NCBI GenBank assembly: GCA_965222605.1
Contig: OZ244960.1
Coordinates: forward strand, 5,760,001 to 5,824,000
DNA length: 64,000 nt
Direction of reading: 5' to 3'
Source of the DNA: Candidatus Latescibacterota bacterium
Lineage (GTDB): Bacteria > Latescibacterota > UBA2968
The notes under the pieces were generated by a model. The model was not told where the DNA came from. It saw only the letters and a program-made list of their open reading frames with translations, and searched no databases. This document shows, one piece after another, positions 15,009 to 40,539 of this stretch (position 1 is the first letter of the stretch; every line of letters begins with the position of its first letter). The translations under genes and the position numbers were made by a program.

Positions 15009-15283
15009 AAGTTGAGTCCAAAAAATACGCACGGGGCGTTGGTTGAATTGGGCACTCGCTTCAATACTGCTAACAAAAAGAAAATACGTTGGATACTGAG
15101 AAAAAACAACCTGAAATTGTAGAATGAATGGCGGATTCACACTAAACCACAACGACGCAAAACCCAATGCAAAAAACAGGAGTTACATCTGGCTGCAACG
15201 ATGTTTGAGAACAGAGTCAGAAAAATATATACCTTCAACCTCTAGGATAAGGACTCTAAGCCGTTGTCAAAGTTACAGTAATC

Positions 15284-18200
15284 CTACAAAGCTGTTGGTA
15301 AAGGCATTATGAATCTTTCGCGTAATTGAAATCCTGTCGAAGAACCAGAGTTGATCAACGCATCAAGAAGCTCAACAGTGGCTTGGCGAATTCTTATATT
15401 GCCTCGAATCTCGCTTTCTCGACTCAGAAGGTTATTTCGCAATAGCACCTCAAGATCAAATCGTGTATTAGGCTCTTGAAATATTTTTTTAGCATCTCCT
15501 TGTTGGAGGGCTTTATTAAGCCAAAGTAAGGCATCTGGAAGAAATAATCTTTCAACAGCCGATTTGAGCAAACAGACCAGTGCATTGAATCCAATTGGGT
15601 GGTGCCCTATGTGTGAACAGGCATTTTGTATGAACTCTCGATTATTTGTCAATGGCTCCCACTCTGTTGTATTCTCTTTCCATTTAATATCCGAAAAGAG
15701 CAATGTCCGGATAATTTTCCTTAGTTCTGAAGGAATAGGTCTATCGTCTGCGCGTTGATTTAGGTCTTCAAAAGCTTTAGTCGCAATTGTTGACCAAATG
15801 TTCCAGAACTGTGCATCATTTCTTGACTGATCTTCAGCCTCAAAAAGGTATGGGATGAAATATTCGGTTACTTTGTAGCAGTTCTGCCAGTTATCCATCA
15901 TAAGTTGCATTGCTGATGTTATATATTCATTAGGTTGGTTGAGGATAAATCTTGAGAAATATCCCAAGAACAGACCTGCAAATTCATAAGGATATCCGGG
16001 ATATCCACTTGAATATCTCCTCTCTGTATTTACCTCAACCGATTTTTCAATCAATAGAGTAAAGATTTTTGCATGTAACTCCTGATGATATGCTTGTGTT
16101 GATGTAGGTGGAATCAGCCCAATAGCATACTGGAGGCCGTGATAATCATGGGTCTCCAATGTTATGTCCTCAATATTGGGGTCATCTTGAATTTTACCTT
16201 CTGCAAGTTGTCGCAAGAGCGTTGTCCTACCATTGAAAATTGCCTCTACATGTGTCTGCTGCGCTTGACCTGTGTATAGATTATTAAAATGAGGAATATG
16301 ATCAATTCTCATCTTCGCATTTATGATATGCGCCTTAAGGCAATTTTCAGCAAACACCGGATCCTTTTCCCATAGTGTCTCGTGACATCCACTCACAGCA
16401 AACCATCTCACTTCCCGTGACGGATGCAAGTGGCTTGCAGCTATCCCCACTCTTATTTCCTTTTCACCCTGCTCATCAAACTGGCCCAGTAGTAAGGGCA
16501 GCACGGTTGCTGCTGGTCGAGATCCCGCCATCTCAAATATAGAAACCTCATCTTGATTATCAAGGCTACTGAATTTATGGGCAATTGCCTCAAGGAGAAC
16601 CTGACGACACCACTCTTTTTGTTCATCACTTGTTTCAGCCCAATGGTCTCTTACAATAATAGCAGCTGTATATGCATATCCGCCAGAAAAAATCTGGTAG
16701 CTTTCATCATCTGCATGTTGCAGTATTATACTCTGCGCTTCTTGGGCTTCCTGAAGAGCTTCCTGCCAGTTTGCAAAATAGTTGCTATTGTTGTCCTCTT
16801 TTTTGTATTGGGCTATACCCCAGTCCAAAAGTCTGCGAAGTTTCATTTTTCCTTCAAATTCTGGATATCCTTGTTCCTGAAACTGCTGTAAATCTTGTTC
16901 AAGTTCCTGAGGATTTAGTATGATACGTTGGTTTTCAGTATCTTCTTGCGCATTGTATCGCCGTAGGTCTATTCGGCTTAATACAATTCTCCAGGTCTTA
17001 TCTTCTTCACTTTGATCTTCAAGTGGCGGAAGTTGACTTCTAAAATTATCAAATATGTCAAAGATTTGACTCTGTACCTCAGTTATTTGCAGATTTCTTG
17101 CAAGGTCTTCAAGGCACTTCCCTCGATGGTTTCTTTGAGCTGAAGTTTTCCTTTCGTTGTCGTGGATTTCATGATCTACAGGTGTCAGTAAACCCAACAG
17201 GGATTGCCCTGCACTTATAGATTGTTCCAGAACTAATCTCTGAGTGTCCCAACAATAGAATTCTCTGGTCCTCAATAGAGGCAAGGCATGTTTTTTAAAC
17301 ACCTTTGGGTACGCGGTTGCGATGCTGACCAGCATACTCGTGATGGCTACATTATTGCTCTCAAACAGTAGTTTGTTAAATATATCTATTACGTCATTGC
17401 CGGATTCTATTTGCCTGAATAGCCAGTTTTCAAGAGCCATTAATGCAGATTGTAAAATATCGGGAGCGACAGAAGTTCCGCGATAAAGACACCATAACCT
17501 TTGTCCACCCCATTGTTGTATGGTTCTACCATCATTGAGATGCACATTCACTTGAACAGGTTCGCCGTCGTCAAGGTCTGATTTTGTATAGGCCAATATT
17601 GCGTGGTTTAAGAGTTCAATGATGAAGTCTATACCCTTTTCAGAATTATGTCGAAGTAAATTTGCAAAAGGCCCCTGCAATCCACTTGGGGGATAAAGCG
17701 AATTATGTACATCATCTAACCCAAAATTCTCATCTCTATCAAGATGTCCACTATAGAATCCATCGGAATCAGGTTCCTGATAATACCAAGCCTGCTTTGC
17801 CAATTTGACGACAATATCGGGGTAGTGCTTACAGAGTTCCTCCGAATAGAGAAAGTCCAGAGCTTCTTTTTTAAAAATGTCAAATATTCTCTCGCAAGAT
17901 TCTCCATGAATTCTGGCGTTTGCCAGTTCCGAGATTTCAGAGTTGAGCACCTCGCACACCCTCAGAACCACTCTTATCAAATCTTTGTGATTGTCTCGCC
18001 CATAATGCTCTCTTTTATCGTACAGTCGATGAAGTGCAATTAGACCCACCTTCCGTGCTTCGTCTGGTAAGGGATGATCTCTTTCTATCCCTTGTATCCA
18101 ATCGGATAATACCCCATCAATTGTAAAGTGGTGCTGCTGGCCGATTTTATCATAATGAGCATGGATGAATTCAATAACGTGTTTCCATCCGGATCCAGAT

Positions 18201-20356
18201 GGACGTAAGAACATCAGACTTATTGCGAATAATTCATGCGAATGAAGTCCGTCAAGCTGCTTGAGTGACGAGACATTGGGGTCTTTGCAAGCAATTCTGA
18301 GCAAATGCATTATCCTGTTTAACAACTGACCGTCATTGCGGAGCAATGTCTGGCACTGTTCTTGGAAGAAGGTGCCTGCATTTTCTGATTGTAGTACAGC
18401 GATTATGATATCGTCACTCCAAATTTGTTTCAGGCCATTCTGTGCCAAGCAGTCCGAGATAAAATCGTGAATATCTGGTACGGACTTCTCATTGATTGAA
18501 TCCAAGAGCCAGATACGGAAACTACGCCGAATAGCAAGTTCCATTCCTAATGCATCAAAGAATGCGAGAATATCATTCCCTTTGACTTGATACTGTTCGT
18601 CTATATATCTGATGAGTGCCCAATCCTCAAAAAGATCATGTGCAGGTGCATATCCACCATCTCGTTCGATGATAATATTATCCTGCTTGAGTTTTTCGAT
18701 TGCTTCTGGATCAGAGTCTATGTAAGGCACAGTAACTGTCATTGCTCTGGCTCGTCTGAGTGCTATATCTGTAAAACACTTTTCCCTTTTCAGCGGCAGC
18801 CCACGAATATTTTCCTGTCTTTTTTTGATCACATTTTGCCAGATCACATCTTTGAAATTTTGCTCTGTTAGAGTGGAGGGCGAGTCTGACCAGTCAATTG
18901 AACTGGCGTATTTAAGGTAGAGGGGGATTCTCAAGAGTTTAGCTACACGGTCGTTTGTCGCCAGAGGCGCAATGCTCGGTATCTGGCTTAAAACTTTGCC
19001 AAAATCATCAGCATCTAATGGTGGAATCGTCAATGTTGTCAGGTTATGAATTCTACTCGGATATAATAGATGCTGGTAGGCCATATCCAGTGAATGAATT
19101 CTACAGGTAGCAATAATTCTCCATGTATCATCCTCTGCGATAGTCGTGAGAAATTGAATGATGGTCTCAACAGAATTACTTTCGAAAATTCGCTCTAATG
19201 ACTCAATTAAAAGAACCTTTCGCGGTAATAGCGCAAACCGCGCAGATAGTTGAGGGATAGTGTCACTTATGCCAACGCTTGAAAGAACTACATCAACATG
19301 CGGTTGATTAAATTCCTCTGCTTTGAAGACAAAACAAGGAGTATCCTTTTGCAGTCTCTCCAAGACGTTCTTTGCAAGAGCAGATTTTCCTATACCTGCT
19401 CTTCCTACAATTAAAACTCCCTTCTTTTCCGAAATAGCATCTACTGCCTCAGATATAAGTGCAGATCGCTCAATATGCAGGTCGTGTCTAATTCGATCAT
19501 CTATGTTATTGAGTGTCACTTGCCCGTGTTGTCTTAGCCTCTCGATTGAATCGCACCTCACAACACTTTCATTTGGTCTGAACCATTGTTTGACTTTATC
19601 AGGCAGGGTGTCTTTTGTAATCGTTGCAGAATTGGGATTTGCCCGGGCAATGAAATCTGTTATCTGCGGCCATATAGTGCTTAAAGAGTCTGTGACATTC
19701 GGATTCTTTGCCATTTGTGCCATATTGAGGAACAAGGTTCTATCAGTACTTTCGTCCTGATCTAAGTCATAGTGAAGCCAGTGAAACACTTTGATAAAAC
19801 GCCATAATTCATCATCTGTTATAGCTGATCCTTTAGCATTATCAAGGTGCAGTCGAATAACTCTAAGGAATTCTCTCATTGTATCCGATGCAAATTTGAC
19901 GGTATGCACCTTGTCAATATATTCCGCTGCACTCTCACAATATCTTGCCCATTGGAGCAGGCGGGGAAGATTCTGGGTTATCCTTCCAGCAAGTGGTCCT
20001 GTAATCAAAACAATGGCATCGTGATTTGGGTTAAATACTGATGCATTGTTATAATCTTGCCACGCAAAATTGAGAACACCTGCTAATTTATCATCTGATT
20101 CAGTTATGGCGATTTTGTGCGTAATCTGAGCCAGAAGCTTGTGTTGGTCACCATAAGTATCCACAAGGGAAACCATCATGTCATCTATGCCAATTCCTAA
20201 TTGCCGCGCTTGCACACGTATTGAAGTGATCTCGCCCTCTGGTAAGCATGGGACAGTTCCGCCGACAAGCATATTGACGACGTATCCAGCCTGAATTTCA
20301 CGCTCGAATGTAGTTCCGCCGCCACTAGTTGAAAAAGGGTTGGATACTGTTGGCAT
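15284..20356 (-). CDS. Large STAND NTPase with an N-terminal nuclease-like domain; AVAST-like (probably Avs2-type) anti-phage protein
   Basis: N-terminal SNPFSTSGGG..FE..Q and IDD...Q, Walker A GRAGIGKS, Walker B-like VLLIESLE, HDLFEDWA winged helix, LWCLYRGTSV.P..LQSALMALE and a long helical C-terminus. AT-richer than the flanks. Avs subtype is from recalled motifs. Confidence 0.75.
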   Translation of the reverse strand: MPTVSNPFSTSGGGTTFEREIQAGYVVNMLVGGTVPCLPEGEITSIRVQARQLGIGIDDMMVSLVDTYGDQHKLLAQITHKIAITESDDKLAGVLNFAWQDYNNASVFNPNHDAIVLITGPLAGRITQNLPRLLQWARYCESAAEYIDKVHTVKFASDTMREFLRVIRLHLDNAKGSAITDDELWRFIKVFHWLHYDLDQDESTDRTLFLNMAQMAKNPNVTDSLSTIWPQITDFIARANPNSATITKDTLPDKVKQWFRPNESVVRCDSIERLRQHGQVTLNNIDDRIRHDLHIERSALISEAVDAISEKKGVLIVGRAGIGKSALAKNVLERLQKDTPCFVFKAEEFNQPHVDVVLSSVGISDTIPQLSARFALLPRKVLLIESLERIFESNSVETIIQFLTTIAEDDTWRIIATCRIHSLDMAYQHLLYPSRIHNLTTLTIPPLDADDFGKVLSQIPSIAPLATNDRVAKLLRIPLYLKYASSIDWSDSPSTLTEQNFKDVIWQNVIKKRQENIRGLPLKREKCFTDIALRRARAMTVTVPYIDSDPEAIEKLKQDNIIIERDGGYAPAHDLFEDWALIRYIDEQYQVKGNDILAFFDALGMELAIRRSFRIWLLDSINEKSVPDIHDFISDCLAQNGLKQIWSDDIIIAVLQSENAGTFFQEQCQTLLRNDGQLLNRIMHLLRIACKDPNVSSLKQLDGLHSHELFAISLMFLRPSGSGWKHVIEFIHAHYDKIGQQHHFTIDGVLSDWIQGIERDHPLPDEARKVGLIALHRLYDKREHYGRDNHKDLIRVVLRVCEVLNSEISELANARIHGESCERIFDIFKKEALDFLYSEELCKHYPDIVVKLAKQAWYYQEPDSDGFYSGHLDRDENFGLDDVHNSLYPPSGLQGPFANLLRHNSEKGIDFIIELLNHAILAYTKSDLDDGEPVQVNVHLNDGRTIQQWGGQRLWCLYRGTSVAPDILQSALMALENWLFRQIESGNDVIDIFNKLLFESNNVAITSMLVSIATAYPKVFKKHALPLLRTREFYCWDTQRLVLEQSISAGQSLLGLLTPVDHEIHDNERKTSAQRNHRGKCLEDLARNLQITEVQSQIFDIFDNFRSQLPPLEDQSEEDKTWRIVLSRIDLRRYNAQEDTENQRIILNPQELEQDLQQFQEQGYPEFEGKMKLRRLLDWGIAQYKKEDNNSNYFANWQEALQEAQEAQSIILQHADDESYQIFSGGYAYTAAIIVRDHWAETSDEQKEWCRQVLLEAIAHKFSSLDNQDEVSIFEMAGSRPAATVLPLLLGQFDEQGEKEIRVGIAASHLHPSREVRWFAVSGCHETLWEKDPVFAENCLKAHIINAKMRIDHIPHFNNLYTGQAQQTHVEAIFNGRTTLLRQLAEGKIQDDPNIEDITLETHDYHGLQYAIGLIPPTSTQAYHQELHAKIFTLLIEKSVEVNTERRYSSGYPGYPYEFAGLFLGYFSRFILNQPNEYITSAMQLMMDNWQNCYKVTEYFIPYLFEAEDQSRNDAQFWNIWSTIATKAFEDLNQRADDRPIPSELRKIIRTLLFSDIKWKENTTEWEPLTNNREFIQNACSHIGHHPIGFNALVCLLKSAVERLFLPDALLWLNKALQQGDAKKIFQEPNTRFDLEVLLRNNLLSRESEIRGNIRIRQATVELLDALINSGSSTGFQLRERFIMPLPTAL

Positions 20357-20412
20357 TTGTGTATATCCTCTTTGGTGTAAATATTGCCGTGACAGTCTCT
20401 GGCTACGTCATA

Positions 20413-20442
20413 AATGTGACTACGTTATAAAGTAGTCACATT
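20413..20442. promoter_or_regulatory. 30-bp near-perfect palindrome upstream of the Avs-like gene (candidate operator)
   Basis: AATGTGACTAC-GTTATAAA-GTAGTCACATT, 57-86 bp upstream of ATG 20356. Confidence 0.5.
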
Positions 20443-20509
20443 ACAGCCAATTTGCAATGATACCTTCTATTTTGATGCTCCATTTCACTTTTGCAGTGAA
20501 CACAACTCT

Positions 20510-20599
20510 CTATAACAGTCGCCATAGATCACCACAAAAATTCTCGAATTCTTCCCAAGATTCAGGGGGCGGAATTTGTCTAGTTCGTGAGGAATTCAT
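20510..20599 (-). pseudogene. 29-codon remnant of the N-terminus of a restriction-endonuclease-like (Mrr-type) defence protein
   Basis: AAGGA RBS, then MNSSRTRQIPPPESWEEFENFCGDLWRLL-stop. IPPPxxWxxFExxCxDLW is a recognisable REase-domain start. Confidence 0.6.
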
Positions 20600-20634
20600 T
20601 GGCTATCCTTCTGTTGTATTGAACATTAAACCGA

Positions 20635-20692
20635 CTAAGCCCCCCACACAATCAGTCATCAAATTGAGCAACTGATAGTGAGAGGGGCTTAG
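20635..20692 (-). other. Long imperfect hairpin abutting the 3' end of the tRNA-like element
   Basis: CTAAGCCCCTCTCACTATCAGT...ACTGATTGTGTGGGGGGCTTAG: 22-nt arms with 3 non-Watson-Crick positions, plus an inner TCAA/TTGA stem. Confidence 0.75.
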
Positions 20693-20778
20693 CGGAGAGG
20701 GCGGGATTCGAACCCACAAGGGAACAAGTCCCTGCATCCGATTATCAGTCGGCCGCCTTACCGTTCAGCCACCTCTGA
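20693..20778 (-). tRNA. Non-canonical tRNA-like RNA: tRNA-Ser-type body (long variable arm, G73) with anticodon GAU (Ile); first two acceptor pairs mismatched
   Basis: TCAGAGG TG GCT GAACGGTAA GGC G GCCGA CT-GAT-AA TCGGA TGC AGGGA CTTGT TCCCT T GTGGG TTCGAAT CCCGC CCTCTCC G. No encoded CCA. Confidence 0.75.
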
Positions 20779-20824
20779 GTAAGAACCACTCATGGTTCCC
20801 ATCCAAAATTGGCCGAACAGAGAA

Positions 20825-20853
20825 AACATGACAAACAGATAGCCTAATGTCAA
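20825..20853 (-). promoter_or_regulatory. Putative sigma70 promoter upstream of the tRNA-like element
   Basis: TTGACA-17 nt-CATGTT with an extended -10 TG. Confidence 0.45.
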
Positions 20854-21072
20854 GATTTAACCAACGAAAGTGTTGTGCAGTAGTTTAGTGTTTGCTGATA
20901 TCTTCAGCAATTCAGTGTCTCAAATTTAGTCGGATCTTACAACTCTCCTTGGACGATTTTTTGACAGGGAAGATACGGACACTTTTATAGGTATAGCAAA
21001 AAGCGTAAAGCATGGTGCGATCTTCTGAAAAGGGTTCAATGATCTGATGGGGCTTCTTCGGGAGAACCAATT

Positions 21073-21603
21073 TCAACGCACAGGTGGAGGAGGTGGGGAA
21101 GTGTAGGTGCGGGCGGCTCTACCGTTGCGTCGGATTGCGTCCGCGATAGGTCCAAGCCGCGATGGCCCCGAAAACATCCCGTCGTCCAAAATTCTCTGAA
21201 TCTCGTCCGTTTTCATTGTCGCTATGAACTTGAAAACCCTCGGTATGGCACTGACTCGAGACTTGGATGCAGGTTCATCAATCCCGTAAATCTGGCAGAA
21301 ATTTCTAATGTCGCCAAACGTTGGGAGAAAGGCCTTGTTTTCAAATCTTTTTGCAAGCTCCGTCGCTATCGGCTTTTTTTTCGAAGAAAGTTCCATCTTG
21401 GCAACATACTCCGGAGCATTAACCTTTGCCCTCTTATTAAGGGGCTTTGTTACTGCTTTTTTATCAGATAGCACTTTGCTCTGTTTGGAACTTTTGAGTT
21501 GACGATCAGCAAGGCGAATTTCCCGTAGAGATTGATCAACTTGCTCGAAACCATATTGGCGAACTATCAAACGCAGCGTATCTTTGAGTTTAGCTTTAGT
21601 CAT
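21073..21603 (-). CDS. Hypothetical basic protein, operonic with ParA
   Basis: 176-aa ORF with an AGGAGG RBS, starting 21 bp after the ParA stop. Confidence 0.75.
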   Translation of the reverse strand: MTKAKLKDTLRLIVRQYGFEQVDQSLREIRLADRQLKSSKQSKVLSDKKAVTKPLNKRAKVNAPEYVAKMELSSKKKPIATELAKRFENKAFLPTFGDIRNFCQIYGIDEPASKSRVSAIPRVFKFIATMKTDEIQRILDDGMFSGPSRLGPIADAIRRNGRAARTYTSPPPPPVR

Positions 21604-21624
21604 AAGCTATCAACCCTCCTGCCA

Positions 21625-22479
21625 TCATTCAAGCCCAAGTACTTGGAAGAATTCGCTCGCAAAATTATCAAAGAGAACGGCATCACCACGGTGCGTAAAA
21701 TCTCCACGCATCATTTTGGGGAATCCACGAGAGAGGGGAATCTCGTTCTCGAATATGCGCCATCCGTTTTCTCTGGCTTCCTGAAGTATTTCAAGCCTAG
21801 CTCTACGCCTTTCTGGCCCACCCCTGTTTCCACTGTAATGATAAGATGAATTGTTGATAACGACGCCGATAACGTCAATCCGGTGGCCTCGATTATGTCC
21901 TCTAAACGCGTTAAGGGAATCGTTCAGTAATGGAAAGCCAATAGTTGCAAAATACTCAGGCTTGACGGGAACAAGAATGTAGCCAGAGGCATGGTATGCG
22001 GCTTGGGTGAATATAGATTCGGTTGGCGCGCAATCTATAATGATGAGGTCTTTATCTTGGAAACTATTGGCGATAAGCCGCGCCAGAATCTCCGGATCAG
22101 GCTTAATTGATTCAACCAAGTTGTCGGAGAAATCAAACCTTGAAGGAATGAGATGCAAATTGCGACCGCCCAAGGGAGTATTGCTAACAATCACATCAGC
22201 AATATTAAGTGGTCCTGGCGATGTCATACTAGCAGTTGGCGGCTGATATCCATTAAATATCTCAACAATTGATGGAGAGTTGTCGTTTAGGAACTGCCTA
22301 TAATTTCTATCCCTCATAAAAGCTTGAGAAAGATTAGCTTGTGGGTCCAGGTCAATAGCAAGGACATTAAGATTAAGACGTGATGCCGCATACCGACTCA
22401 GCAACGCCGCAATAGTCGTCTTACCGACGCCGCCTTTCATGTTAATCACCGAGACACAAACAGGTCCCGTTTGGGCCAT
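21625..22479 (-). CDS. Orphan ParA/Soj-family ATPase
   Basis: Deviant Walker A NMKGGVGKTT, IDLDPQANLS, IIIDCAP. AGGAG RBS. Confidence 0.9.
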   Translation of the reverse strand: MAQTGPVCVSVINMKGGVGKTTIAALLSRYAASRLNLNVLAIDLDPQANLSQAFMRDRNYRQFLNDNSPSIVEIFNGYQPPTASMTSPGPLNIADVIVSNTPLGGRNLHLIPSRFDFSDNLVESIKPDPEILARLIANSFQDKDLIIIDCAPTESIFTQAAYHASGYILVPVKPEYFATIGFPLLNDSLNAFRGHNRGHRIDVIGVVINNSSYHYSGNRGGPERRRARLEILQEARENGWRIFENEIPLSRGFPKMMRGDFTHRGDAVLFDNFASEFFQVLGLE

Positions 22480-22569
22480 ATTTATCTCCTACTTTGCGAA
22501 GGCTGAATAGCACATAATACAAGACATTTTACTGATGTTAATATACGGTCTTTAGGATAAAAGGCAAGT

Positions 22570-29116: not shown

Positions 29117-29126
29117 AGTAAAAATA

Positions 29127-29152
29127 AGACACTTACAAAATTGTAAGTGTCT
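29127..29152 (-). terminator. Intrinsic terminator after tRNA-Ala copy 1
   Basis: AGACACTTACAA-TT-TTGTAAGTGTCT followed by TATTTT on the - strand. A degenerate homolog lies at ~40259-40282. Confidence 0.75.
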
Positions 29153-29161
29153 AAAAAAAAG

Positions 29162-29234
29162 TGGAGCCGAGCGGGATCGAACCGCCGACCTTTTGACTGC
29201 CAGTCAAACGCTCTCCCAGTTGAGCTACGGCCCC
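29162..29234 (-). tRNA. tRNA-Ala (GGC), copy 1
   Basis: GGGGCCGTAGCTCAACTGGGAGAGCGTTTGACTGGCAGTCAAAAGGTCGGCGGTTCGATCCCGCTCGGCTCCA; G3:U70 pair. TTGACA-17-TACCCT promoter upstream. Confidence 0.97.
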
Positions 29235-29299
29235 ACTGCTATGTGTAGTCAAGGGTAACAAAATGGGGTGGGTCTGTCAAGCAAAAAGCCGATTGCGGA

Positions 29300-40239: not shown

Positions 40240-40291
40240 CTTGATCTCCATAAAAATAAGACACTTACAAACGCAAGTGCCTAAAAAAAAG

Positions 40292-40364
40292 TGGAGCCGA
40301 GCGGGATCGAACCGCCGACCTTTTGACTGCCAGTCAAACGCTCTCCCAGTTGAGCTACGGCCCC
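40292..40364 (-). tRNA. tRNA-Ala (GGC), copy 2
   Basis: Identical to 29162-29234, with its own TTGACA-17-TACCCT promoter. Confidence 0.97.
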
Positions 40365-40539
40365 ACTGCTATGTGTAGTCAAGGGTAACAAAATGGGATG
40401 AATGTGTCAAGTAAAAAGCCGATCACGGATTTTGCAGATTACGGGATGGCGCGGATTAAATTCTGTGCTCAGTCTTTGATGAAGATGCAGATGAACTGCT
40501 GTCGCAGTCATGCACGAATGACACGCCTTCATACATTGC

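Follow-up and report, generated by a model that had tools for sequence, protein, structure and literature searches.

A putative leader-masked small RNA gene derived from tRNA-Ser in an Avs4 defence island of Candidatus Latescibacterota

Transfer RNAs (tRNAs) of serine identity with non-cognate anticodons are known among the allo-tRNAs. According to the parts of Mukai et al. cited here (PMC5389517), allo-tRNAs are defined by an acceptor branch of 12 base pairs (bp) split 8/4 or 9/3, and they mostly bear non-Ser anticodons, UAU being the most abundant group. In the same parts of that paper, the UAU group is described as having stem-destabilising mutations and either toxin-antitoxin or transposon genes nearby; none of six variants tested was active in translation, two of the six killed cells, and the authors judged most members of the group unused in translation. 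Here, we analyse a tRNA-like element found in 64,000 nucleotides (nt) of the genome of a Candidatus Latescibacterota bacterium (GenBank assembly GCA_965222605.1, contig OZ244960.1, positions 5,760,001 to 5,824,000). This whole stretch is called the window and its genome G000. The element belongs to a module located beside a gene for the STAND NTPase Avs4. Our favoured reading, at about even odds, is that this module is a tRNA-Ser-derived small RNA gene of the Avs4 island that has been kept for its structure, is masked by its own leader and does not decode. The feature itself is real and odd; the evidence of function is suggestive, thin and drawn from one island lineage.

The module has the following parts, given in the direction of the putative transcript.

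20825..20853, minus strand, promoter-like site TTGACA-17-CATGTT, read from the sequence (TTGACA at 20848-20853)
20803..20820, minus strand, leader strand (GUUCGGCCA, UUUUGG), which in the predicted masked state pairs with tRNA positions 1-18 (20761-20778)
20780..20801, minus strand, small leader hairpin of 9 bp with the loop UGAG, from the predicted fold
20692..20778, minus strand, tRNA-Ser-derived tRNA-like RNA, from ARAGORN and Rfam
20635..20692, minus strand, long imperfect 3' hairpin of 58 nt with about 25 pairs, beginning one base after G73

ARAGORN called the tRNA-like RNA an 87-nt tRNA-Ile(gat). Its acceptor stem has seven positions, and the two outermost are mismatched (U.C at 1-72 and C.C at 2-71). 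In both ARAGORN and Rfam, the acceptor and T stems are split 7/5, and U8 and G9 separate the acceptor stem from the D stem. The D stem has 3 bp and its loop contains G18 and G19; the anticodon stem carries G.A at 27-43; the 7-nt anticodon loop reads CU-GAU-AA, with U33 and A37 intact (GAU at 20744-20746); the variable arm is long, with a 5-bp stem; and the T arm is canonical (GUGGG UUCGAAU CCCGC). The discriminator is G73 and CCA is not encoded. A preliminary description of this DNA had already listed a small hairpin, a Ser-type cloverleaf with this loop and a hairpin of about 58 nt, as well as the two broken terminal pairs and the missing CCA, and all of these features were recovered. The absence of CCA from the gene is not diagnostic, since 6 of the 48 further tRNAs called in G000 do not encode it either and the genome has a PolyA_pol-family gene of the CCA-adding type.

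The match of the element to the Rfam tRNA model (RF00005) reached 39.7 bits (gathering score, 29); it is a local match covering model positions 3-68 only, and the two terminal acceptor pairs fall outside the match in this copy as in the homologue described later in the text (41.5 bits). For six genuine tRNAs of relatives (five tRNA-Ser and one tRNA-Gln), scores of 50.7-60.2 bits were obtained over positions 1-71, placing the element 10-20 bits under them. At a relaxed threshold, Rfam returned tRNA only; a weak opposite-strand match to a plastid 3' untranslated region is the antisense of the T arm. A region of 241 nt folds at z = -8.4 compared with dinucleotide shuffles, and the entire module is present in a single copy in the 6.34-Mb genome (51% GC).

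The body of the element is that of a tRNA-Ser, as had been proposed. BLAST gave 17 matches across the whole body in relatives, every one of them a genuine tRNA-Ser gene (13 GCU, 3 CGA and 1 GGA), the element has the long variable arm and Ser-type body of this class, its T arm and 3' acceptor strand match a host tRNA-Ser at 25 of 26 positions, and its acceptor core, AGAGG/CCUCUCC-G, is the tRNA-Ser acceptor of the phylum. The preliminary description was also right that this is not a housekeeping tRNA, for tRNA-Ser(GCU), tRNA-Ile(GAU) and three CAU tRNAs are encoded elsewhere in the genome. A tRNA-Ser isoacceptor is ruled out by the anticodon (GAU, or CAU in the homologue), by the mismatches at 1-72 and 2-71 and by the presence of G73 in G000 only. 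A tRNA-Ile or tRNA-Met has a class I body, a short variable region and A73, and the host's own tRNA-Ile(GAU) is indeed a 77-nt class I tRNA; in the element, only the anticodon fits, the variable arm being long and position 73 being G or U.

The homologue was found in a second genome of the same genus (G005). A protein-guided scan of 185,579 species genomes gave a single close relative of the window's Avs4, with 89% identity, in a Candidatus Latescibacterota metagenome-assembled genome (L001); this is the G005 locus, as the Avs4 contig ranges coincide and the tRNA-like sequences are the same. The flanking host genes of G000 and G005 are collinear with 91% identity, so that the two loci are orthologous. 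Upstream of Avs4, G005 has the leader, small hairpin, tRNA-like RNA and long hairpin in the same order. The tRNA-like RNA is called there as a tRNA-Met(cat) of 90 nt by ARAGORN and has U73 as its discriminator. The preliminary description held that ordinary tRNA-Ser(GCU) homologues would count against its proposal; this one reads CAU and has kept both the hairpin and the Avs4 neighbour. A mismatched 1-72, C2.C71 and an NAU anticodon are common to both alleles. The defects are therefore older than the split of the two alleles, and pairing was kept afterwards.

In G005, a complete type I restriction-modification operon (hsdR, hsdM and hsdS; L001 4460-9566) lies between orf182 and the module, which follows hsdS after ~100 nt. 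By alignment, G000 retains only an apparent 3' end of hsdS (..QGEL*, window ~20912-20960), and the operon looks to have been deleted there. On the other side, a 130-nt stretch with an open reading frame (ORF) remnant is found in G000 but not in G005. Deletions to the left and right have thus spared the module.

Between the two alleles, identity is 83% in the leader, 69% in the tRNA-like RNA and only 6 of 20 columns in the variable arm; the 3' hairpin, 90% identical, is conserved in sequence only. The four-fold degenerate sites of Avs4, used as a neutral yardstick, are 86% identical. Of the 67 alignable tRNA columns, 12 carry substitutions, and these break none of the 17 intact pairs of the cloverleaf (3.5 expected, P = 0.009; the pair-keeping P-values are from 100,000 random placements of the substitutions). 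They include two double compensatory changes, A5-U68 to G-C and G7-C66 to A-U, and two changes by which G27.A43 and U50.G64 each become C-G. The variable arms share little sequence, yet they form stems of 5 bp and 6 bp. In a slid-partner control, which favours any structure derived from the same two sequences, 97.1% of cells were paired versus 36-50% after sliding. Apart from a 2-nt insertion in the D loop, the unpaired positions that differ are 1, 15 (A in G000, G in G005), 26, the wobble base (G in G000, C in G005) and the discriminator (G in G000, U in G005).

With the leader attached, the minimum free energy structure of both alleles is predicted to be a masked fold, in which the leader is base-paired to the 5' strand of the acceptor and to the D arm. 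The masked fold reaches -56.0 kcal/mol versus -38.3 kcal/mol for the enforced cloverleaf in G000, and -60.7 versus -43.4 kcal/mol in G005, a gain of ~17 kcal/mol. The leader strand of G005 reads UCCUGG where G000 has UUUUGG, and the 10 substitutions in the masked fold and small hairpin break 0 of 25 pairs (P = 0.007 by random placement). One of the changes, from U-A5 to C-G5 between leader and acceptor, is a double compensatory change; it involves acceptor position 5, which in the cloverleaf covaries with 68. In the masked fold, two U.G or G.U pairs become C-G or G-C, and the small hairpin has one double change from G-C to A-U. The duplex between the leader and the 5' half of the tRNA (-22.4 kcal/mol) is the strongest among the 49 tRNAs of the genome, the others having a mean of -11.9 kcal/mol (standard deviation 2.9) and the next one -21.2 kcal/mol. 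Moreover, the sense strand folds better than the antisense strand (-94.6 versus -72.8 and -103.6 versus -92.2 kcal/mol in the two alleles), fitting the many G.U pairs and pointing to structure at the level of RNA rather than DNA.

A TTGACA promoter had been described ahead of the small hairpin; the hexamer is there, but its -10 (CATGTT) is weak and the site was not called by a promoter scan. The homologous site of G005, TTTACA-17-TATATT, agrees with 10 of 12 consensus positions and means little alone, because 1.6 such sites are expected by chance in the region. Judging from the position of the window's TTGACA site, transcription would start at the first bases of the leader helix. For the 3' hairpin, no U-tract terminator was called in G000 or G005, the tail being GUCGGUUUAAUGUU; an intrinsic terminator was rejected here, as the U tract expected after a GC-rich stem is missing. 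The hairpin is possibly a terminator or a processing site.

G2-C71 and G73 are determinants for seryl-tRNA synthetase, and a mismatch at 1-72 blocks the binding of EF-Tu. The loss of G2-C71 in both alleles and the U73 of G005 make the serylation suggested by the preliminary description doubtful. Together with the double terminal mismatch and the sequestration of the acceptor by the leader, and as far as these general rules apply, they argue for a non-decoding RNA. It is highly improbable that the element is a working decoder, be it a Ser-tRNA mistranslating AUY (G000) or AUG/AUA (G005) codons or an extra tRNA-Ile or tRNA-Met for the low-GC genes of the island. Such a role would agree with the intact 7-nt anticodon loop with U33 and A37, the canonical T and D loops and the long variable arm, and the host has both a CCA-adding-type gene and six genuine tRNAs lacking an encoded CCA; in the parts of PMC5389517 cited here, Ser-type tRNAs with non-Ser anticodons were translated in Escherichia coli. 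However, the tested allo-tRNA(UAU) species of the same source did not translate, the host already has a tRNA-Ile(GAU) and three CAU tRNAs, and decoding would have to overcome the masking by 17 kcal/mol in addition to the terminal mismatches of both alleles and the U73 of G005.

An index of sequencing runs places the stretch in sponge-associated samples. In two metatranscriptomes from two studies, contigs differing from the window by one base each cover 20691-20843, 20862-21111 and 21152-21365 (X15) and 20704-20886 (X17). They span the leader and the tRNA-like RNA and end at or near the tRNA 3' end (20692), whereas the DNA contig continues; Avs4 is barely covered in these RNA runs. This is a weak hint that the module is transcribed, on which the proposal of the preliminary description depends, and that a 3' end lies at the tRNA-like RNA. 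No contig of X15 or X17 covers the 3' hairpin, although absence at the contig level proves nothing. At position 20812, where the plus strand of the window has G, X15, X17 and a DNA run (X10) have A; in the RNA, this change from C to U turns a leader C-G pair into U.G and keeps the pairing of the masked fold. X10 also has a low-depth contig (depth 2, side 25) joining 18835 to 20692, the exact 3' end of the tRNA-like RNA, with 34 other letters in between; this joint probably reflects the tRNA of another organism.

The same contigs bear on the possibility that the module acts in cis, either as a processing, 3'-end-forming or insulating element between orf176 (hsdRMS in G005) and Avs4, or as a leader tuning Avs4. 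In X15, the stretch between 21365 and 20691 is represented by three pieces of about equal depth, which end at the tRNA 3' end with Avs4 nearly uncovered, as would be expected of such an element; its placement ~100 nt past hsdS in G005 and the 90% conservation of the hairpin sequence agree with this, as does the complementarity of the CCUCU acceptor strand to the Avs4 Shine-Dalgarno sequence AGAGG in both alleles. We nevertheless regard a cis-acting role as unlikely. Past the hairpin, Avs4 seems to be provided with a promoter-like and operator-like region of its own; no terminator with a U tract was called, and such a leader was found at none of 80 other Avs4 genes. In addition, the T loop, the GG of the D loop and U33..A37 have been kept, which a mere cleavage signal does not need. 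As for the complementarity, it involves the 3' acceptor strand at 20694-20700 (UCCUCU in G005) and the Shine-Dalgarno AGAGG(A) at 20363-20369; the CCUCU strand would be single-stranded in the masked fold, and the match may be a coincidence of tRNA-Ser sequence.

Several observations weigh against a non-decoding RNA kept for its structure. All covariation comes from two sequences of one genus and one island, and no further homologue beyond G005 was found in the collections covered. In a shuffle control, the observed value was reached by 64 of 500 shuffles for the cloverleaf and by 130 of 500 for the masked fold, which is not significant, and the P-values of the two folds, which have columns 45-62 in common, are not independent of each other. 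In the 3' hairpin, no excess of kept pairs is seen (2 of 25 broken, P = 0.48). Outside the variable arm, the tRNA columns diverge by 18% and the silent sites by 14%, about alike; therefore, the sequence is not conserved, only its pairing. On the side of transcription, the RNA contigs have a depth of ~3 and no strand information, and DNA carry-over is possible. Both begin upstream of the proposed promoter, so that read-through from upstream genes may feed the module. A further RNA run (X19) holds Avs4 pieces of a related strain and, at the contig level, nothing over 20464-21883 at >=88% likeness. Finally, islands of the window carry whole tRNA copies (the tRNA-Ala pair) and distant Avs4 islands sit at tRNA-Ser genes, which makes it plausible that the element came along as a passenger.

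The distribution of the module is narrow. BLAST with the 271-nt module detected it in 2 of 168 genomes of the phylum, G000 and G005, both with the same island, and in G005 only among 60 relatives; this Avs4 is likewise present in 2 of 31 genomes of the family, the same two. Model R1 gave the two copies 196.6 and 207.8 bits; everything else that it matched in 151 phylum genomes was an ordinary tRNA with at most 70 bits, and on 82 sources it again returned only the two known copies, the rest being ordinary tRNAs at <=70 bits. Plasmids gave no match, phages only a match of the T arm to a phage tRNA-Ser, and IMG/VR 0 matches for two IUPAC patterns. Large collections of genomes and metagenome contigs were scanned with the Avs4 protein as the query rather than with the RNA itself. 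Among 80 metagenome Avs4 loci obtained in this way (27-39% identity, 72 of them with at least 300 nt upstream), ARAGORN, BLAST and model R1 found the module in none; ARAGORN matches at -ps85, many of which were inside coding sequence, were judged false and not used. A component of the Avs4 system was therefore rejected as an identity for the module, which accompanies both copies of this Avs4, a single island lineage, and 0 of 80 other loci. The module is not a general Avs4 component. Nor is there support for a module heading varied defence genes, the pattern that the preliminary description would have counted in its favour, given its absence from these loci and from plasmids, phages and IMG/VR and its restriction to one island in the phylum. 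Its linkage to defence as such was confirmed, for it lies inside a defence island whose features are as follows.

15011..22539, minus strand, low-GC accessory island with the ParA-like gene, orf176, the tRNA-like module and Avs4, from composition and the empty-site joint
21625-22479, minus strand, ParA-like ATPase, from Pfam and PADLOC, conserved in G005
21073-21603, minus strand, orf176, of no family, conserved in G005
20513..20599, minus strand, ORF of 29 amino acids (aa), N-terminal remnant of a TPR/PIN-type conflict protein, in the ~130-nt stretch absent from G005
20416..20439, minus strand, palindrome GTGACTAC-N8-GTAGTCAC, a perfect 8-bp inverted repeat, from the alignment, conserved in G005
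15284..20356, minus strand, Avs4 STAND NTPase of 1690 aa with an N-terminal Cap4/LmuA-like nuclease domain, from PADLOC, PDB, AlphaFold (AF2) and Foldseek

The composition profile gives the island a GC content of ~42% compared with 51% for the genome. In X10, contigs at a depth of ~90 join 15010 to 22540 and the island-bearing contig has a depth of 14; this suggests a ~7.5-kb accessory island with an empty-site population, its ends being approximate because the shorter side of the joint is only 30 nt. The module is internal, the joint placing the ends of the island 1.8 kb and 5.7 kb away from it. An attachment-site (att) remnant of the present island was rejected, since the tRNA-like RNA is full-length, internal and without a second copy in the genome. 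Similar short sequences (TTATCCTA.AG ... GTATAT) occur at 22541-22560, outside the right island end, and at 15222-15249, ~35 nt past the Avs4 stop; this pair may be a direct repeat left by the insertion of the island.

We infer that a tRNA-Ser gene, next to which an Avs4 cassette once integrated, gave rise to the module. The element could be a passenger or att-derived pseudogene, a tRNA-Ser copy carried with the Avs4 cassette when it moved as a larger block, now redundant, decaying and functionless, with a mutated anticodon and without its first two pairs, and we take this possibility seriously while finding it rather doubtful. Tracts of tRNA do accompany Avs4 elsewhere: two of the distant loci (L010 11019-11046 and L063 8400-8428) have the 3' part of a tRNA-Ser, comprising T arm, 3' acceptor strand and CCA, at 2-2.6 kb downstream of Avs4, and 3 of the 80 (L048, L052 and L072) have a canonical tRNA 170-240 nt ahead of Avs4 and on its strand. 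The window itself has a tRNA-Ala(GGC) duplicated whole around an 11-kb island. The 25 of 26 matches to the host tRNA-Ser, the lowered Rfam score, an overall divergence that is about neutral and the occurrence in one island lineage only are all as expected of a passenger. On the other hand, the derived defects (C2.C71 and the NAU anticodon) are shared by both alleles, and since the split none of the 17 pairs of the cloverleaf and none of the 25 of the leader fold has been lost, with several double compensatory changes. The variable arm was rewritten and is still a stem, and the module is full-length and island-internal, between a conserved leader and hairpin. The fragments of L010 and L063 are each followed by a terminator and look like att remnants of islands at tRNA-Ser genes.

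The two copies of tRNA-Ala(GGC) are at 29161-29234 and 40291-40364 on the minus strand, within repeats at 29119-29299 and 40251-40429 (93% identity over ~180 nt, and 82% over another 300 nt). They flank an 11-kb segment of lower GC that encodes a PLD-SNF2 helicase (1204 aa), a DDE transposase, an Eco57I-like methyltransferase (1399 aa) and a familyless ORF of 348 aa. The segment has the look of another defence island, one that either came with a complete tRNA gene or duplicated it.

The gene downstream of the module, taken for Avs-like in the preliminary description, is an Avs4 (PADLOC, E 1.5e-231; PDB 8dgf, E 1.3e-227). The first ~255 residues lie outside both matches. An AlphaFold model of this N-terminus (32 sequences; predicted local distance difference test score, pLDDT, 86.6) matched LmuA (9hr5_C, E 1.3e-6), the Avs3 N-terminus (8dgc_A) and Cap4 (6wan) in Foldseek, with E-values from 1.3e-6 to 2.4e-4. 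The Avs4 effector is therefore predicted to be a Cap4-type DNA nuclease, with nothing tRNA-directed about it. Pfam gave no match for the Avs4 N-terminus, the 29-aa ORF or orf176, and an Atlas search for orf176 returned unnamed clusters only. The palindrome overlaps a -10-like TATAAC (TATAAT in G005) ~60 nt upstream of the Avs4 start and looks like a putative operator.

The 29-aa ORF had been described as the remnant of a restriction-endonuclease domain. It is a gene remnant, with 69% identity over 29 aa (E 3e-10) to the start of a TPR/PIN protein of 1313 aa in the same genome, but neither Pfam nor a PDB search, which gave only a chance match, called a restriction endonuclease. The 1313-aa protein (G000:C1:382880-386818; L102 180-4119, minus strand) has TPR repeats and a PIN-TPR-GreABC domain; its N-terminal ~150 aa have no Pfam call and, by our own reading, a D..QxK-like motif.

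If the module is a masked small RNA, as favoured above, its action may be pictured as follows. Transcription would start at or upstream of the TTGACA site. The leader would fold first, pair with the acceptor 5' strand and D arm as these emerge and mask the cloverleaf, and the anticodon, variable and T hairpins could form in the masked or the cloverleaf state. The long hairpin right after G73 would end or process the transcript. The cloverleaf, with 5 effective bp in its acceptor stem, would form only once the leader has been cut away or opened, and the unmasked RNA would then be an uncharged tRNA mimic bound by a host or phage tRNA-recognising factor; no Ser would be inserted at Ile or Met codons. 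Taken as a masked 'pro-tRNA' in anti-phage defence, a speculative and decidedly improbable proposal, the leader would hold a non-chargeable mimic closed until infection-linked cleavage or unwinding releases the L-shaped RNA. Its variable arm, acceptor stem, discriminator and wobble base, all of which evolve fast, might contact a phage or host tRNA-binding factor, and the RNA would act as a decoy or sensor, or as an uncharged tRNA jamming the ribosome, beside Avs4 but independently of it. The preliminary description saw here a candidate for an undescribed defence system; this cannot yet be said, the evidence being thin and from one island lineage.

Among known RNAs, the element is comparable with the allo-tRNA(UAU) group as described in the cited parts of PMC5389517, with which it shares a Ser-type body, a long variable arm, an anticodon of the AUN box, destabilised stems and a position near conflict or mobile genes. 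It differs from that group, in the same parts, by its 7/5 stems with two terminal mismatches, its masking leader and 3' hairpin, its GAU or CAU anticodon instead of UAU and its location beside Avs4 instead of a toxin-antitoxin system. Because its stems are split neither 8/4 nor 9/3, we do not file it as an allo-tRNA, a class to which the preliminary description had likened it. With canonical bacterial tRNA-Ser(GCU), it has in common the AGAGG/CCUCU core, G73 (G000 only), the 3-bp D stem, the long variable arm, the T arm GGGUUCGAAUCCC and the CU-NNU-AA loop; in contrast to tRNA-Ser(GCU), it has GAU or CAU, has lost G1-C72 and G2-C71, has no CCA and a lower Rfam score, is island-borne and evolves fast. 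Like the island tRNA copies and att remnants (the tRNA-Ala pair, L010 and L063), it is tRNA-derived sequence travelling with a defence island, and Avs4 islands use tRNA-Ser sites; unlike them, it is full-length and internal, is not exactly like any host tRNA, and has compensatory changes and a conserved leader and hairpin.

A tRNA-like fold inside a longer transcript, with a leader pairing that is relevant to processing, is also seen in mascRNA at the MALAT1 3' end, which, in the parts of PMC8457004 cited here, is eukaryotic and uses RNase P and RNase Z. As regards the neighbouring gene, which is a clear Avs4 like EcAvs4 (PDB 8dgf), the N-terminal effector has a Cap4/LmuA-like fold outside the 8dgf match, and 0 of 80 homologous loci have the module. 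In the literature covered, we found nothing linking a tRNA-like RNA with Avs and no RNA partner of EcAvs4, and none of the papers listed was relevant to tRNA-like noncoding RNA in defence islands. Irregular Ser-type tRNAs with AUN-box anticodons near conflict genes, with no assigned function, were known before as allo-tRNA(UAU). What is new here is an ordinary 7/5 scaffold, a leader that is predicted to mask the acceptor and covaries with it, and a pattern in which protein-read positions change fast while every helix is kept. Should further alleles fail to confirm this pattern, the module will be a tidy case of a tRNA copy captured by an Avs4 island; should they confirm it, the role of such tRNA mimics in defence islands could be studied in a compact system.

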